Shown here one piece after another: positions 1,553 to 11,407 of a stretch of DNA of 48,680 nucleotides. Source of the DNA: a virus (lineage: Duplodnaviria > Heunggongvirae > Uroviricota > Caudoviricetes). Below the pieces are notes generated by a model. It was not told the DNA's origin. It searched no databases and was given only the letters and a program-made list of their open reading frames with translations. The stretch is from the IMG/VR virus record IMGVR_UViG_647533159_000004; one strand, given 5' to 3'. Position numbers and translations under genes: made by a program. Within the stretch, counting starts at the first letter, position 1; each line of letters begins with the position of its first letter.

Positions 1553-1741
1553 TCACGAGGACAGAAGTTTCTCGCAATTAAAATTTATCAGTTTTACTTT
1601 CTGCTCTCTGGAAACGCCTGCTTCTTTTTTCCCTGAGAGCATTTTTTCGCATTCTGATTTCGTTAATTTAGATTTTGAATATCTTATCCAGTTAGTAGGA
1701 GTGCCACCTTCTTTTTCAATAGTGGCGGTAATTTTATACAT
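1553..1741 (-). CDS. Small early protein (YdaC-like), 62 aa
   Basis: ATG at 1739-1741 preceded by GGAGGT; 8-nt overlap with upstream Lar gene. Confidence 0.5.
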   Translation of the reverse strand: MYKITATIEKEGGTPTNWIRYSKSKLTKSECEKMLSGKKEAGVSREQKVKLINFNCEKLLSS

Positions 1742-1964
1742 GAACACCTCCATTATTATTTCCAGTGGTTCGTTTATTCCATCGTTCGAGTGCTTCTTTT
1801 TCACTTCCACCATAGCCGGTTCGGGATTCGCATCCGTTACACTTCGCGCGGTAATATCCTGAAATGGCTTTCACCGTTACTGATGGACAACCACAAAAAG
1901 GGCATGGTTTGACTTTTGTGTATCGCACTGGTTTTTCTCCTGTGAGCTTTGTGGCTGCGCTCAT
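1734..1964 (-). CDS. ralR: Lar/RalR-type restriction alleviation protein
   Basis: CPFCGC...C..C zinc-ribbon-like translation recalled as Rac RalR/Lar; ATGA overlap with exo stop. Confidence 0.7.
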
Positions 1965-2641
1965 TTCCATTGCTCCCCAAATACAAAACCAATTTCAGCC
2001 AGTGCCTCGTCCATTTTTTCGATGAATTCTGGCACCATCTCGTCAAAACTCGCCATGTACTTTTCATCCCGCTCAACCACGACATAATGCAGGCCTTCAC
2101 GCTTCATACGCGGGTCATAGTTGGCAAAGTACCAGGCATCTTTTTGCGTCACCCACATGCTGTACTGCACCTGGGCTATGTAAGCCGACTTTATGGCCCC
2201 GAAACCACCGAGCCGGAACTTCATGAAATCCCGGGAGGTAAACGGGCATTTCAGTTCAAGGCCGTTACCGTCGTTGCATAAGCCATCGGGAGAGCAGGCG
2301 GTGCGCATAGTCTCGTCACGATAGATGATCGGGGATTCAGTAACATTCACGCCGGAAATGAACTCAAACAGGGCTCTGGCGTCGTTCTCGTACTGTTTTC
2401 CCCAGGCCAGTGCTTTAGCGTTAACTTCTGGGGTCACTCCGGTGCAGACCTCAGCCAGCAGGGTGTGGAAGTAGGACATTTTCATGTCAGGCCATTTCTT
2501 TCCTGAGCGGGGTTTTGCTATCACGTTGTGAACTTCTGAAGCTGTGATGACGCCGAGCCGTAATTTGTGCCACGCATCATCCCCTTGTTTAACAGTTCTC
2601 ACGTCGATTCCTGTACGTTGCAGGATAATGTCAGGAGTCAT
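1961..2641 (-). CDS. exo: Lambda-type 5'-3' exonuclease (Red alpha / YqaJ family), 226 aa
   Basis: Translation near-identical along its length to recalled lambda Exo; ATGA coupling with bet. Confidence 0.9.
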
Positions 2642-3417
2642 GCTGCCACCTTCTGCTCTGCGGCTTTCCGTTTCAGGAATCCAAGAGTTTTCACTGCTTC
2701 GGTCTGCGTCAGTTCTGATGATGCGCGAATGTCGCGGCGAAGTATCTGGGAACAGAGCGGCAATAAGTCGTCATCCCATGTTTTATCCAGGGCGATCAGC
2801 AGAGCGTTAATCTCCTGCATGGTTTCATCGTTAACCGGAGTGATGTCGCGTTCCGGCTGACTTTCTGATGCGGTATTTTCGACAATGCGCTCGGCTTCAT
2901 CCTTGTCATAGATACCAGCAAATCCGAAGGCCAGACGGGCACACTGAATCATGGCTTTATGCCGTAACATCCGTTTGGGGTGCGACTGCCACGGCCCCGT
3001 AACTTCTTTGCCTTCGCGGGTTTTGAATGGTTCGCGGCGGCACTCATCCATCCACTCGGTAACGCAGATCGGATGATTGCGGTCCTTGCGGTAAATCCGG
3101 CATGTACAGGATTCATTGTCCTGCTCAAAGTCCATACCATCAAACTGCTGGTTTTCATTGATGATGCGGGACCAGCCATCAACGCCCACCACCGGAACGA
3201 TACCATTCTGCTTATCAGGGAAGGCGTAAATCTCTTTCGTCCACGGATTAAGACCGTACTGGTTGGCGACGATCAGCAGCGCGATGAATTGCGCATCGCT
3301 GGCATTGCCTTTAAATGCTGTCTGGCGAAGAGTGGCGATCAGTTCCTGCGGGTCGACAGTATCCATGCCGACACGTTCAGCCAGCTTCCCGGCCAGCGTT
3401 GCGAGTGCTGTACTCAT
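2638..3417 (-). CDS. bet: Bet (Red beta) single-strand annealing protein, 259 aa
   Basis: Translation near-identical to recalled lambda Bet ([19 protein letters not shown]...). Confidence 0.9.
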
Positions 3418-3422
3418 TCGTT

Positions 3423-3722
3423 TTATACCTCTGAATCAATATCAACCTGGTGACGCGCAATGGTTTCAACCATGTACCGGATGTGCTCCGCCACGCGTTC
3501 CTGAAATTCAACATCGTCATCAAATGCGCGACTGATTGCCTGTTTGCTGGCACCGTGGCGTTGCAAATGGTCGATGCAGAGCGATTCAAACAGGTGCTGG
3601 GGCAGACCTTTTTCCAGGTCGTCCGCCAGTTCCGTTTCTTTTTCTTCGCGAACGATCTTCTGGTAGTGGCGTGACCATGCCAGCTCTTCAATGCGATCAA
3701 AAATCGGGCATGTGCTCATCAT
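3423..3722 (-). CDS. gam: Gam-like RecBCD inhibitor (short GamS-like form), 99 aa
   Basis: C-terminal 80 aa match recalled lambda Gam ([29 protein letters not shown]...); sits upstream of bet. Confidence 0.8.
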
Positions 3723-5730
3723 CTGTTACCCCAAAATTTTCAAGTTTGTTTGCGATCATCATTGCAATACCCGGAATTAATGGCGCTGAGGCTATACCTG
3801 CAGGATTCGCACATAAACCGTAAACCGCCGCAATCACCACTTGTCTTTTCCAGTCGAGTTTTTCTAATGATGAAGCTGCTGCTTCGCCAGTTTCATCACT
3901 GCAATCGCGATGCGGATCGCTGCCAGCATTCTCCTTGTGTGGATGTTCAGCGCCTTCCATTTTCTCCGGCTCATTTTCCCGAACTTCAACCTGATTCTCG
4001 TCATCGAATGTTTCCTGATATATTGCGTCGCCCATCACCGCACCACAGTCAGGGCAGTTATCCCCGCCAGACTGACCGCAGGCATTGCAAACTTTTTCTA
4101 CTTCCTGTTGCGCCACTGGTTCAGGCTGTTTCGTTTCTGGCTCGTTTTGTAACGCATTTGGGCTGTTTTGTTCCGCTTTCTGGTCGTTCTGTTCCGATTC
4201 TTGTTGGTTCTGGTTCACTGAATCGCGGGTTTCAATCCCCTTCACCCATTTCGGATCATTCGGGTCGCTAATCCCCTCAACAAATTCACCACGTGATGCA
4301 GCAAGCAACTTATCGGCATCGACAGGATTTTTTGATGGAATGTTTTTCCGGGCTTCATGGAGTTCTGCCCGCAGTTCCTGATATTTCGCATCAACAGAAT
4401 TTACCTGTGACTGAGCATCCAGCGGCTGCGTGTCCTGATGATGTTCAGTTGCGTCCGGTTCCATTGTTTCAGCCTCTCCCTGTTCATCTGCCGTTGTTCC
4501 AGATGGTTGCGGTTTTTCTTCATCATCCTGTTTTCCTTCTTCTGTTACACGCTGCGGCATCGGGGCAGAGGAACGACCGCAGGCAATATCCACGATTTCC
4601 GGATCAGGGTTGGCATGATCAGTTTCAGTCAGTACTTTGTTCAGATATTCAGTGACGTGCGCGGGGGTGACCTCGATCCCAATTGGTGCTTCTTTCACGG
4701 ACGCAACCACGATGGCGCGGGAATAATCCAGCCCGCCAGGCATGGTGATGAATTTGTCGCGGAAAACAGAAAAGGGCGGTTTATTTTCAGCGATAATTTC
4801 CTCAATGCGTTTAGCGTGTGCCGGATGAAGGTTATAGATGTCCACGTCCATTGAACGGGCAAGTACGCCAGTGGCTACATCGCGTGCCAGTGACGTCAGA
4901 TCGTGGACGAAACCTTCGCCGCGATCGGTGAGGTTCCCGCCGCCAGCATTAGCACCGGAAGCCGTGCGAGTGATGCGTGAAACACGATTCCCTTTTCGCC
5001 ATTCTTTTGTCAGAAGACCGCGATCAATGTGTTCGGTATCCAGCCAGGCTGAAATGAAATTCTTAAATTCATAGGGCTGATGTTTTTTCGTGATAGAGAA
5101 AACTGCCTTAATTGCATCAGTCAGGCGGAGCAGGGCGGCATTATCCAGAGTTGTCGGTTCTGCCATGCCGCGTATGGCCAACAGCAGATTCTGGACATAG
5201 CTGTTTTCCTGATCCATCTCAAGAGCAGTAATGTGTTCGCGTTGTTCACGGGTGGCATGATGCAGGTATTTCCGATCCCCGGCCGCATACGTAAAAATGT
5301 GCAGAAGACGCTGAGTGAACCGCAAAGTGGCTACAGAGACTTCACAATCCTGGCAATCCCCGTGGGCGTCTGCCTGCGCGTTTTCTTCCTGGCCTCCCGT
5401 CAGTTTTTCAGTTTCCTGAGCATTGTCCTGATAGTGAACGTCGTCTGGCGCTGCTCCCGGTTTTAGTTCCCAGGTCATGGAGTCTTTGCTGAGTTGATAG
5501 CGTTCACTCCAGGTAAAATCGATCTCACCTTCAGGGGGAAGGTCATTAACGACAGGAAAATTTGTGGCAACAGCTTTAAAATAGTTGCTCAGTTTTTTAC
5601 CTGACTTAACGATCAGGTAGTCCAGAGTGGCACAGGTCGATTCAAAATCGTCACTTGCCCACAGGACGACGTCAGGTTCACCGGATGATTTTTTCGCTTT
5701 TCGTAACAGGAAGAGTGGTTTTGTGCTCAT
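3697..5730 (-). CDS. Large hypothetical early-left protein, 677 aa, acidic low-complexity centre with CxxC...CxxC zinc-ribbon-like motif
   Basis: Long uninterrupted ORF, ATG at 5730 with GAGGT upstream, overlaps gam start; no family recognised by eye. Confidence 0.6.
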
Positions 5731-5828
5731 TGTTTTTTAACCTCAACTCAGATTAAAATTACTGCGAGTGATGAATAAATGTCCCAGGTTCTTCACTCAG
5801 GCCTGCACGTTGTGCAGGCTTTCTTTTT

Positions 5829-6104
5829 TCAGATTTCACCTTTTAATTTCATTGCAATCAGAGTTGCCAGAAATCCGGCTTTTTTTTCTGCGGGCAGATT
5901 CTTTCCGATGTGAACCAGACTCATTTTTGTGACACCTTCATCAAGTGTTTTTACGTTGCCTGATGGGCCGTCAATATCAACCACAGTGAATGGGGTTTCT
6001 TTATTTTCTGTTTTAATCACGTAGCCAATACGCTTTCCTTCCAGATTAACCTCGTGAACAATGTCATCGGTAGTTACAACAGTGACTTCATAATTGGTAA
6101 TCAT
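5829..6104 (-). CDS. Hypothetical early protein, 91 aa (RacC-like by size and position)
   Basis: ATG at 6104 preceded by AAGGAG; sits in the early-left operon. Confidence 0.5.
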   Translation of the reverse strand: MITNYEVTVVTTDDIVHEVNLEGKRIGYVIKTENKETPFTVVDIDGPSGNVKTLDEGVTKMSLVHIGKNLPAEKKAGFLATLIAMKLKGEI

Positions 6105-6177: not shown

Positions 6178-6348
6178 TTAAAGTTCGTGTGCCATCTGGT
6201 CTTTTTCGGCACAATTTTCACTACAATATTTTTTCATTTCCGTCGTTGGGATAACTCCACGCATGAAATGAAGTGGTCTTTTAATGCTTTTGCTTTCTTC
6301 AATTCCTTTATTGCAAAGGTGGTAAGCACATTTTATTTTCTTAGTCAT
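6178..6348 (-). CDS. Small Cys-rich zinc-binding-like protein, 56 aa (YdaE-like)
   Basis: Not in ORF track (<60 aa); hand translation [15 protein letters not shown]...YCSENCAEKDQMAHEL; ATG shares one nt with upstream stop. Confidence 0.45.
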   Translation of the reverse strand: MTKKIKCAYHLCNKGIEESKSIKRPLHFMRGVIPTTEMKKYCSENCAEKDQMAHEL

Positions 6349-6569
6349 CACCATGACTCCGCCTTTACAGGTAAACCATCACGACCGAGGAAGACTTTAA
6401 TCATGCAGTCAGAAATGCATGTTTTTGTAGTCAGGTTACGAATATAAAGTTTTCGCTTTTTAATATTGTTTGCCGAGGCGATATATGTCCGGCCTTCATG
6501 AAGAACATAATCACCAGGAGTCACACACTGACGTGGTATTTCATCAGTTCCGAAGTGATGTGCAATCAT
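6348..6569 (-). CDS. Hypothetical small protein, about 73 aa (KilR-like by size and position; start could be 6581)
   Basis: Internal ATG at 6567-6569 preceded by GGAGA; the ORF-track start at 6581 lacks an SD. Confidence 0.4.
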
Positions 6570-9254: not shown

Positions 9255-9333
9255 GTCGAACCTCCTTTGGTTCTGTTGATTGGGGAATCACAGATTATAT
9301 CCGGAGGAAGGTTCGACACCAGATGAGGCAATT

Positions 9334-10373
9334 ATGGTTAAGGCTAAAAACATGCCAAATCCCATGCCAAAAACTAAGGCAAACAATGAGCCTTATCGCA
9401 AGGTAAAAATAACGATATGGGATGATCCCAAATTTAGGGCGTTATCTCCTCTGCCTCCAAGTGGACAGAGTTTGTTTATTTATCTGCTGACCAGTCCATT
9501 TACCGGGATTATTCCTGGGTTGTTTAAAGCCGGGCGGGCAGCAATGGCTGAAGAGTTGGGGTGGGATATCGAAGCCTTTGACTTAGCCTTAGGCGAAGCC
9601 ATGAATCTTGGCATGGTGAAAGCAGATATCAAAGCCAGAGTTTTTTGGCTCCCGAATGCTGCGAAACACAATCCGCCAAACTCGATAAATGTCATTAAAT
9701 CCTGGGCAAAGGCATTCGCTTTAATTCCTGATTGCCCTCTCAAATGGGAGGCCAGGGAATCGCTGAGAGCCGCGTCCTACGGGGTTTCTGAGGCTTTGGG
9801 GATGGCATTCGATAAGGCAATCCCTTTGCCTGAGGATAAGCCTAAGGATAAGGCTAACGCTTTGTCATGCGGTATCCAGATAACAGATAACAGATATATA
9901 AACCCCACACATAACGCGCGCGAGAGTGCTCCGACCAGTGAGGCAAATGGCGTGCCGTTGCAGACAGCGGAACCTGATTACCTGGAAGGCCTGAGCGAAC
10001 CCATCGGGAAATTTCCTATGACCGATGGCTGGCATCCGTCGCCGGATTTTCGACGACGGGCTGCGCTGTGGGGCGTGGCTCTTCCTGAGCCGGAATTTAC
10101 ACCAACTGAACTTGCCGCCTTCCGGGACTACTGGGCAGCGGAGGGCAAAGTGTTCACGCAGGTTCAGTGGGAGCAGAAATTCGCCCGTCACGTAAATCAC
10201 GTCAGGGCGCAGGTTAAACCAGTCAGCAAGGGGGTAAACCATGCAGCAACGCCAGGTGGCACCGCATCACGGGCAGTTCAGGAAATTCGGGCAGCACGTG
10301 AGCAGTGGGAACGTGAAAACGGATTTATCAGCGACGGAAACGGCGTGGAAGCTGTGGGAACTCATGGGGGAGG
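9334..10373 (+). CDS. Replication protein (YdaU/DnaT-like), 3' end lost in N gap
   Basis: ATG at 9334 with GAGG upstream; long ORF running into the gap; position after the CII-like gene. Confidence 0.6.
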
Positions 10374-11240
10374 NNNNNNNNNNNNNNNNNNNNNNNNNNN
10401 NNNNNNNNNNNNNNNNNNNNNNNNNNNNNNNNNNNNNNNNNNNNNNNNNNNNNNNNNNNNNNNNNNNNNNNNNNNNNNNNNNNNNNNNNNNNNNNNNNNN
10501 NNNNNNNNNNNNNNNNNNNNNNNNNNNNNNNNNNNNNNNNNNNNNNNNNNNNNNNNNNNNNNNNNNNNNNNNNNNNNNNNNNNNNNNNNNNNNNNNNNNN
10601 NNNNNNNNNNNNNNNNNNNNNNNNNNNNNNNNNNNNNNNNNNNNNNNNNNNNNNNNNNNNNNNNNNNNNNNNNNNNNNNNNNNNNNNNNNNNNNNNNNNN
10701 NNNNNNNNNNNNNNNNNNNNNNNNNNNNNNNNNNNNNNNNNNNNNNNNNNNNNNNNNNNNNNNNNNNNNNNNNNNNNNNNNNNNNNNNNNNNNNNNNNNN
10801 NNNNNNNNNNNNNNNNNNNNNNNNNNNNNNNNNNNNNNNNNNNNNNNNNNNNNNNNNNNNNNNNNNNNNNNNNNNNNNNNNNNNNNNNNNNNNNNNNNNN
10901 NNNNNNNNNNNNNNNNNNNNNNNNNNNNNNNNNNNNNNNNNNNNNNNNNNNNNNNNNNNNNNNNNNNNNNNNNNNNNNNNNNNNNNNNNNNNNNNNNNNN
11001 NNNNNNNNNNNNNNNNNNNNNNNNNNNNNNNNNNNNNNNNNNNNNNNNNNNNNNNNNNNNNNNNNNNNNNNNNNNNNNNNNNNNNNNNNNNNNNNNNNNN
11101 NNNNNNNNNNNNNNNNNNNNNNNNNNNNNNNNNNNNNNNNNNNNNNNNNNNNNNNNNNNNNNNNNNNNNNNNNNNNNNNNNNNNNNNNNNNNNNNNNNNN
11201 NNNNNNNNNNNNNNNNNNNNNNNNNNNNNNNNNNNNNNNN
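10374..11240. other. Assembly gap (867 N)
   Basis: Run of n characters. Confidence 1.
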
Positions 11241-11407
11241 CGGATGACCTGATTTTACCATCGCTGCATATGGCAAACCGCGAACTGCGTCGGGCGAAAA
11301 GTCATGTCCAGAAGTGGGAGCGAGTCTGCGCCGCGCTGCGGGAGCTGAATAAATATCGCGATATTGTCGCCCAGCTTTGCCAGGAGGAAACCAGTGAGCA
11401 ACATTAA
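11241..11407 (+). CDS. 3' fragment of a gene truncated by the gap (possibly a second replication or helicase-loader gene)
   Basis: Open frame from gap edge to TAA at 11405-11407. Confidence 0.3.

Follow-up and report, generated by a model that had tools for sequence, protein, structure and literature searches.

The 48,680-nucleotide IMG/VR record IMGVR_UViG_647533159_000004 (Caudoviricetes), referred to here over its whole length as the window, carries in its early-left region an uninterrupted open reading frame (ORF) of 677 codons at 3697-5730 on the minus strand, according to the ORF listing. A preliminary description, made from the letters alone, had presented the product as a large acidic protein and possible DNA mimic. 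We found that it consists of the N-terminal module of the RecE exonuclease (RecE-N), an acidic linker and a short conserved C-terminal element, here called the CANP tail, with no nuclease domain (ORF listing, PF06630, NF007259 and BLASTP). The acidic centre rich in E, D, Q and N is indeed there: the predicted isoelectric point (pI) of the 677-residue protein is 4.72 and amino acids (aa) 391-620 carry a net charge of -35. The CxxC...CxxC motif that had been noticed is present as CNAC-x7-CPDC at aa 548-562, and an extra CQDC lies at aa 126-129. It is also correct that the ORF overlaps the start of gam. Its stop codon occupies 3697-3699 and the gam ATG lies at 3722, and the final 26 nt are thus shared in different frames. 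The ORF had, however, been placed directly downstream of gam; all genes are on the minus strand and the ORF is transcribed immediately upstream of it. Transcription passes in turn through repressor, DUF1391, kil, ydaE, racC-like gene, ORF, gam, bet, exo, lar, DUF1187, xis and int.

The preliminary description could not assign a family. Profile searches place the product in the RecE family, and an orphan protein is ruled out by the matches in Pfam, PHROG and NCBIfam. Pfam PF06630 (Exonuc_VIII) matched aa 2-182 over the full profile length (E=4.4e-68) and was the sole significant Pfam domain. PHROG 607 ('exonuclease') matched aa 3-672 (E~1e-238), yet only at profile positions 7-621 of 883. The NCBIfam equivalog NF007259 aligned aa 1-620 to profile positions 1-600 of 877 (E~3e-298), with a score of 991.6 bits that stays below the curated cutoff of 1269. 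By BLASTP, aa 1-618 are 74% identical to residues 1-587 of K-12 RecE, after which homology stops, and aa 1-620 are 91% identical to the 1048-aa RecE of phage Rac-SA53. The product is therefore clearly homologous to a characterised recombination protein, a result that the preliminary description had itself named as one that would speak against its proposal. Over 91% of the query, 99% identity is shared with a canonical 897-aa RecE (P0009), which argues that the N-terminal module is interchangeable between both architectures. The PDDEXK domain PF12684 was not matched in the ORF product by a Pfam search that found one in Rac-SA53 RecE, and phmmer with the K-12 nuclease domain, which covers RecE residues ~588/606-866, gave no match in any tail-bearing protein. 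We conclude with high confidence that the ORF encodes a functional, maintained, nuclease-less member of the RecE family. With equally high confidence, the alignments indicate that no part of the RecE N-terminal module is missing from it, the counterpart being K-12 RecE residues 1-587. Residue 588 of K-12 RecE is, as we take it, the start of the minimal 'RecE588' fragment that suffices for recombineering. If so, the ORF would be the natural complement of that fragment.

The protein homology to RecE ends at aa 618-620, close to a junction in the DNA at 3858-3874 (no strand assigned) that is defined by megablast coordinates and by this end of homology. To the right of the junction the DNA is 93% identical to Rac-SA53 (match starting at window position 3874); on the left, where tail and gam lie, the identity is 81%, to Stx phage 75/02 (match ending at 3857). 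The window overall is Rac-SA53-like and the prophage backbone is Rac-like. The downstream partners in the window are gam, bet and exo, while recE is followed by recT in K-12 and Rac-SA53. The nucleotide matches indicate that a Rac-like prophage swapped a 'nuclease domain + recT' cassette for a 'tail + gam + bet + exo' cassette at the linker/domain boundary. The arrangement of RecE-N, tail and gam-bet-exo is also found in Shigella Stx phage 75/02, at 58% identity and ~77% in the tail, and in POCJ13, PhiR5_2 and phiSTEC1589-Stx1c. Two chimeric alleles were seen among related loci (L022:6001-7695 and L062:5739-7463). Both have an E. coli-type N-terminal part, 70-85% identical to window aa 1-496, and end in a distant-type tail (QLTYEQLLTIAALQGLCANPSY...) that is followed by gam-bet-exo. 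Such alleles show repeated shuffling within the gene.

We built an AlphaFold 2 (AF2) model of the window protein with a 97-sequence alignment. Two regions are predicted with a predicted local distance difference test score (pLDDT) above 90, a small alpha/beta N-terminal domain at aa 1-99 (5434-5730, minus strand) and an all-helical core at aa 125-395 (4546-5358, minus strand). They bear out the earlier impression that the N-terminal ~300 aa are globular. The helical core is the most conserved large block of the protein (RTxSGxxAGGGNxTDR ... PGxLDYSRA ... ETDHAxPD ... ACG), and in an alignment of 19 full-length tail-bearing proteins its residues R141, A339, P375 and C384 are invariant. Fold searches with the N-terminal domains and the core returned no match to a solved structure, a sequence search of the PDB gave nothing at E<=1, and no nuclease-like fold was seen in the AF2 model.

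The core is followed by a linker at aa 396-625 (3856-4545, minus strand), which composition and pLDDT characterise as acidic, with ~-16 net charge per 100 aa, and as mostly disordered. The model has mostly pLDDT <50 from aa 400 to 625, interrupted by short islands: a helix at aa 444-462, a motif at aa 472-496 and the zinc-ribbon-like motif. Residues 475-496 of the second island (4243-4308, minus strand) are conserved in part of the subfamily, and pLDDT reaches 79-88 at aa 471-490 and 64 at aa 491-500. All 19 aligned members have an acidic linker, ranging from 68 to 310 aa in length and from -4 to -17 in net charge per 100 aa; values lie between -10 and -17 except in the shortest linker, that of P0157 (68 aa, -4.4). 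The N-terminal module is net negative across the family as well. The family-wide acidity of module and linker argues for protein binding rather than DNA binding.

The zinc-ribbon-like motif CNAC-x7-CPDC (4045-4089, minus strand) is modelled as strand-turn-strand at pLDDT 57-70, and its matches to Pfam DZR (E=0.25) and DUF2321 (E=0.07) are below threshold. It is present in 102 of 102 close canonical RecE proteins and 15 of 16 close tail forms (117 of 118), and in 7 of 82 distant representatives. The L005 allele has lost the first CxxC. By this distribution the putative zinc ribbon is lineage-specific and belongs to the E. coli RecE lineage. As a family-defining feature it was rejected, being absent from 75 of the 82 distant representatives.

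At the site where the nuclease domain would begin, the C-terminal 57 aa form a conserved element whose core is a two-helix hairpin of ~45 aa (aa 624-668; 3727-3861, minus strand), delimited by the tail alignment, a hidden Markov model (HMM), substitution rates and AF2. The preliminary description took the C-terminal ~80 aa to be globular; the model instead gives a helical hairpin at aa 627-665 with modest confidence, its helices at aa 627-640 and 652-665 having pLDDT 46-61. A distant member of 491 aa was modelled with the same N-terminal module, a 70-aa linker and the hairpin at pLDDT 61-75. The tail alignment yields the motif L-T-[YFW]-x-Q-Q-L-T-I-A-A-L-Q-G-[LM]-C-A-N-P-A-x6-[DE]-[DE]-[IL]-P-x-[MI]-A, in which AAxxGxCANP corresponds to aa 634-643 of the window protein. 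Six of the ten invariant columns in the alignment of 19 proteins lie in the tail, namely A634, A635, G638, C640, N642 and P643 (A15, A16, G19, C21, N23 and P24 in tail numbering). The small-xxx-small pattern (A634...G638) and the C-A-N-P helix cap suggest tight helix packing, either in self-association or in docking to a partner.

The tail HMM matched 55 proteins, in every case at the extreme C-terminus and never internally, and it matched none of 125 proteins with a K-12-type nuclease domain. In a local search the tail stood at the C-terminus of many representatives that share just 22-35% overall identity. In comparisons with the Stx-phage group (dS ~1.6), the tail has a ratio of nonsynonymous to synonymous substitution rates (dN/dS) of 0.06-0.09, and with the L005 allele one of 0.13; the ratio is ~0.10 in the helical core (aa 231-390) and ~0.25 for the whole gene, the last at saturating dS. 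These ratios indicate that tail and core are under purifying selection.

Other identities of the tail were considered. No Pfam family matched it, tblastn against phages gave six records that were all fused to RecE-N, and in a set of 5.8 billion proteins the tail matches were short fragments only, the named ones being mostly partial exonuclease VIII. With no Pfam match and no other fusion partner, the tail as part of another family or as a stand-alone protein was rejected. A transmembrane anchor was likewise discarded: the best 19-residue hydropathy is 1.6, and distant tails have Q, D, R and E inside the helices. The core helix at aa 334-366 and the tail at aa 625-663 share 33% identity over 39 aa, a similarity that recurred in both BLASTP comparisons. 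At E~0.9-1.0 it is not significant, and the tail was not accepted as a repeat of the core LDYSRA helix.

A full HMMER scan of 1.84 billion cluster representatives showed the family to be small, with 258 clusters. A PDDEXK domain is present in 18 of 65 diverse representatives, a Rv2179c-like DEDD 3'-5' exonuclease domain in 14 and a RecT domain in three; the remainder have no recognised enzyme domain. The tail is carried by 20 of 82 representatives of at least 440 aa. RecE-N is thus, by this domain survey, a constant unit with three mutually exclusive C-termini: PDDEXK, DEDD or the CANP tail. One locus (L096:2571-5033, protein P0039) encodes RecE-N fused to the DEDD exonuclease PF16473, whose polarity is opposite to that of RecE.

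We read the gene context in 87 related loci. The RecE-N gene lies in the early-left (Rec module) region in all of them, and the window ORF stands between repressor/kil and int on the same strand. Intact copies are present in ~80 of the 87 loci. In the E. coli/Shigella type (at least 52% identity), the tail ORF is directly followed by gam in all readable loci but L041, and gam by bet and exo; in at least six loci the gene after gam instead encodes a Sak4-like AAA_24 ATPase. Replacement of bet and exo by this ATPase was observed in L005 (1900-2997, minus strand), L029, L054, L058, L067, L069 and L075. No exonuclease at all is recognisable in the operons of E. coli prophages that consist of RecE-N/tail, gam and the Sak4-like gene. 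The distant type (28-43% identity) was found in Buttiauxella, Citrobacter, Lelliottia, Cedecea and IMG/VR contigs; after its tail ORF comes a small ORF, winged-helix or other, often DUF1187, and then xis/int. Distant loci have no annealase and no detectable gam, and their upstream ORFs as far as the repressor are all at most ~110 aa long. The DEDD-fusion form in L096 is directly followed by xis/int, without gam or annealase. As RecE-N may be followed by gam with bet and exo, by gam with a Sak4-like ATPase, by neither or by xis/int, the module is not tied to one annealase partner. In nearly all distant loci that were read, the RecE-N gene is immediately preceded by a small Cys-rich YdaE/Rtr1-like zinc-binding ORF, and the two often overlap (L008:4768-4965, L009:4178-4378, L011:4169-4393, L014:3452-3700, L079:5657-5962, L089:5253-5561 and L095:5282-5557; in the window, 6178-6354). 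The conserved gene pair may indicate a functional link.

The neighbours of the ORF in the window are readily recognised, all of them on the minus strand. Upstream, the ydaE-like gene for a small Cys-rich zinc-binding protein (6178-6354; NCBIfam NF041288, YdaE) precedes a racC-like gene immediately before the ORF (5829-6104; NCBIfam NF007306, 198 bits), in the position of racC in K-12 Rac. Downstream lie gam (3423-3722; a 99-aa GamS-like protein, PF06064, E=5.5e-56), bet (2638-3417; a RecT-family annealase, PF03837, E=3.3e-33) and exo (1961-2641; lambda exonuclease of the YqaJ family, PF09588, E=2.3e-29). To judge from domain matches, lambda Exo is the sole recognisable recombination nuclease of the operon. 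No terminator-like site was found on the minus strand between 8200 and 1200, which fits the earlier proposal that the ORF is co-transcribed with the Red genes. A 10-bp GC-rich hairpin (AGGCCTGCAC GTT GTGCAGGCTT) occupies 5799-5821, in the gap that separates the racC-like gene from the ORF; it resembles a terminator on the plus strand only, that is, antisense to the early-left operon. Between exo and xis the window has a Lar/RalR-type restriction-alleviation gene (1734-1970, minus strand; PF14354, E=5e-14) and a DUF1187 gene (1553-1813, minus strand), the latter being found also after the RecE-N gene of many distant prophages.

Two regions further away differ in composition. An AT-rich kilobase at ~10000-11400 (plus strand) has a GC fraction of 0.22 compared with ~0.50 for the prophage. 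Two ORFs overlap there and enclose it, one at 9280-11247, whose frame has a DnaT DNA-binding domain, and a DUF1627/YdaW-like one at 10241-11407; an insertion or low complexity may account for it. A 670-aa ORF at 44012-46024 (minus strand) lies in a second AT-rich island (GC 0.26-0.30) and is followed by an adjacent 534-aa ORF at 45647-47251 (plus strand). Neither product matched a Pfam family, and the prophage could carry here, at its late end, cargo of the moron or defence type.

How might a phage benefit from a RecE protein that lacks its nuclease? Within RecE, a known activity and a solved structure are available for the PDDEXK domain only. What the N-terminal part does is unknown (PMC11611040, PMC13048471), and according to the literature this part is dispensable for exonuclease activity and recombination. 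Two-thirds of RecE (residues 1-587) are thus of unknown function in a protein that, together with RecT, is a workhorse of recombineering. This portion does alter the outcome of recombination, as seen in linear-linear cloning, and it has been suspected of a Gam-like activity. That stand-alone RecE-N occurs under purifying selection, capped by a conserved motif and sometimes without any recombinase, argues for an independent function of the N-terminal module. The tail-form proteins offer an experimental object for finding it that is free of nuclease background.

We favour the reading that the ORF product is a nuclease-less RecE-family protein with an exchangeable C-terminus that acts as an adaptor in DNA-end metabolism, and we rate its chances as about even. 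As to the role itself, that of a non-catalytic adaptor seems the likeliest, a choice made with low confidence. The N-terminal module would serve as the constant targeting or adaptor unit and bind other proteins at processed double-strand DNA ends or close to them. The exchangeable effector end would be the C-terminus, a fused 5'-3' exonuclease in canonical RecE and a DEDD 3'-5' exonuclease in the second class. In the tail class it would be a hairpin for either oligomerisation of the protein or docking of a partner in trans, and the tail protein would in this way influence how phage or host DNA ends are processed while cutting no DNA itself.

Several points weigh against this proposal. The adaptor model is drawn entirely from domain architecture and gene context, and the sole experimental phenotype of the N-terminal module, linear-linear recombination, was obtained in cis with the nuclease. 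The tail is predicted with no more than moderate confidence (pLDDT 46-75), and the models give no sign that it docks to the core, the predicted template modelling score being 0.38-0.48. The gene after the tail varies by lineage (gam, winged-helix proteins or a 75-aa ORF), which suggests that there is no constant phage-encoded partner. Finally, ~8 of the 87 loci have frameshifted or truncated copies, and loss of the gene is thus tolerated in prophages.

The N-terminal module might alternatively be an autonomous effector that acts on a conserved protein of the host, for instance in a complex for DNA-end processing or defence. The AAxxGxCANP hairpin would then be a docking or oligomerisation element, canonical RecE a fusion of effector and nuclease, and the tail form the free-standing and possibly ancestral state. 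We consider this unlikely, though it would account for the prophages in which RecE-N/tail is the only large early-left gene and would give a first functional handle on a region of RecE that has gone unexplained for decades. A search with PADLOC for a component of a defence system gave no match.

Known DNA mimics display rigid arrays of acidic residues. The preliminary description suggested that the protein could belong among them. As an acidic, Gam-like inhibitor it would block RecBCD, SbcCD, ExoI or a defence nuclease and so shield linear phage DNA. Its acidity is consistent across the family, with a pI of 4.7 in the window protein and a net negative charge in both the linker and the N-terminal module. 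In distant prophages the tail protein is the only large early-left gene, without gam or annealase, and Rac of K-12 itself has no gam. An older proposal of a Gam-like activity in RecE (Reyes 1981) is restated in PMC13048471 (2026), where Gam left RecET-mediated linear assembly unchanged. Other findings do not fit. The Pfam, PHROG, PDB and fold searches revealed no similarity in sequence or fold to Gam, Ocr, ArdA or solved structures, and the acidic segment is predicted to be disordered and varies in sequence and in length (68-310 aa). A genuine gam moreover adjoins the tail ORF in every readable E. coli/Shigella-type locus but L041, and an anti-RecBCD role would be redundant where gam directly follows. 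On balance we regard inhibition by DNA mimicry as doubtful.

The protein might also enhance recombination by the adjacent Red system, with the N-terminal module aiding Exo and Bet in trans as it does RecE/RecT in cis, in replication-independent linear-linear annealing. The ORF is indeed part of the Rec module, flanked on one side by racC/ydaE/kil and on the other by gam-bet-exo, or by gam and the Sak4-like ATPase. However, activity of the module in trans is an assumption, and distant tail members as well as the DEDD-fusion member reside in prophages that have no annealase between repressor and int. The core function of the family therefore cannot depend on a phage annealase, and we judge this explanation improbable.

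Very little speaks for a non-functional remnant, that is, a RecE truncated when gam-bet-exo came in and open merely by chance. The Prokaryotic Genome Annotation Pipeline (PGAP) does flag three genes as pseudogenes, 'incomplete; missing C-terminus' (L004:3484-5314, L005:3561-5235 and L006:3478-5283), a label that stems from taking full-length RecE as the reference. L004 does have a genuinely frameshifted copy and ~8 of 87 loci are truncated, but the L005 (652 aa) and L006 (661 aa) ORFs are intact despite the flag. The architecture is moreover preserved in relatives down to 22-35% identity with the tail as the best conserved segment, and dN/dS is 0.06-0.13 in the tail and ~0.25 overall. Still less tenable is an active exodeoxyribonuclease VIII, the name under which GenBank and RefSeq list such proteins ('exodeoxyribonuclease VIII' or 'RecE family exodeoxyribonuclease'), given that PF12684/PDDEXK is missing, NF007259 is below cutoff with positions 1-600 of 877 covered, K-12 homology ends at residue 587 and the model has no nuclease-like fold. 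Both readings are essentially refuted. The window ORF itself corresponds to a RefSeq entry for a 677-aa 'RecE family exodeoxyribonuclease' (99.5% DNA identity) and has 100% matches in IMG/VR. Public annotation therefore misleads both ways, naming a nuclease-less protein 'Exodeoxyribonuclease VIII' and intact genes 'pseudogene'.

Among known systems, the closest is RecE of the K-12 Rac prophage (866 aa). It shares with the window ORF the start of the N-terminal module, the helical core, the acidic linker and the zinc-ribbon-like motif (74% identity, and 91-99% with other RecE alleles), and kil, ydaE and racC lie upstream in both. In the window ORF, unlike in Rac RecE, the PDDEXK domain is replaced by the 45-aa hairpin, and gam-bet-exo follows rather than recT. 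P0039, the 820-aa DEDD fusion, has an N-terminal module 93% identical over 91% of the query and the same upstream genes, but ends in the PF16473 exonuclease and is followed by xis/int without gam or annealase. Lambda Gam and DNA-mimic inhibitors are, like the window ORF product, acidic, phage-encoded and expressed from the early-left operon. In contrast to Gam, the ORF product has no such sequence or fold and its acidic region is predicted to be disordered; true Gam is encoded by the next gene. A class of 'RecE-2' proteins was recently reported from lambdoid phages as relatives of Rac and Gifsy-1 RecE whose AlphaFold 3 models show no nuclease domain, whose genes lie in the early-left region and which have no known role (PMC12315714, Genome Res 2025). 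The description fits the window ORF and its distant tail-bearing relatives, which likewise lack the nuclease and lie early-left. There the 'RecE-2' proteins are called 'distantly related' and receive no analysis, whereas in its N-terminal part the window ORF is a close relative of Rac RecE. The CANP hairpin, its exclusivity with nuclease domains and the split between contexts with and without gam are not described in the part of the text of PMC12315714 at hand. The window ORF is thus not an orphan but belongs to a class that had already been noticed and was hitherto uncharacterised.

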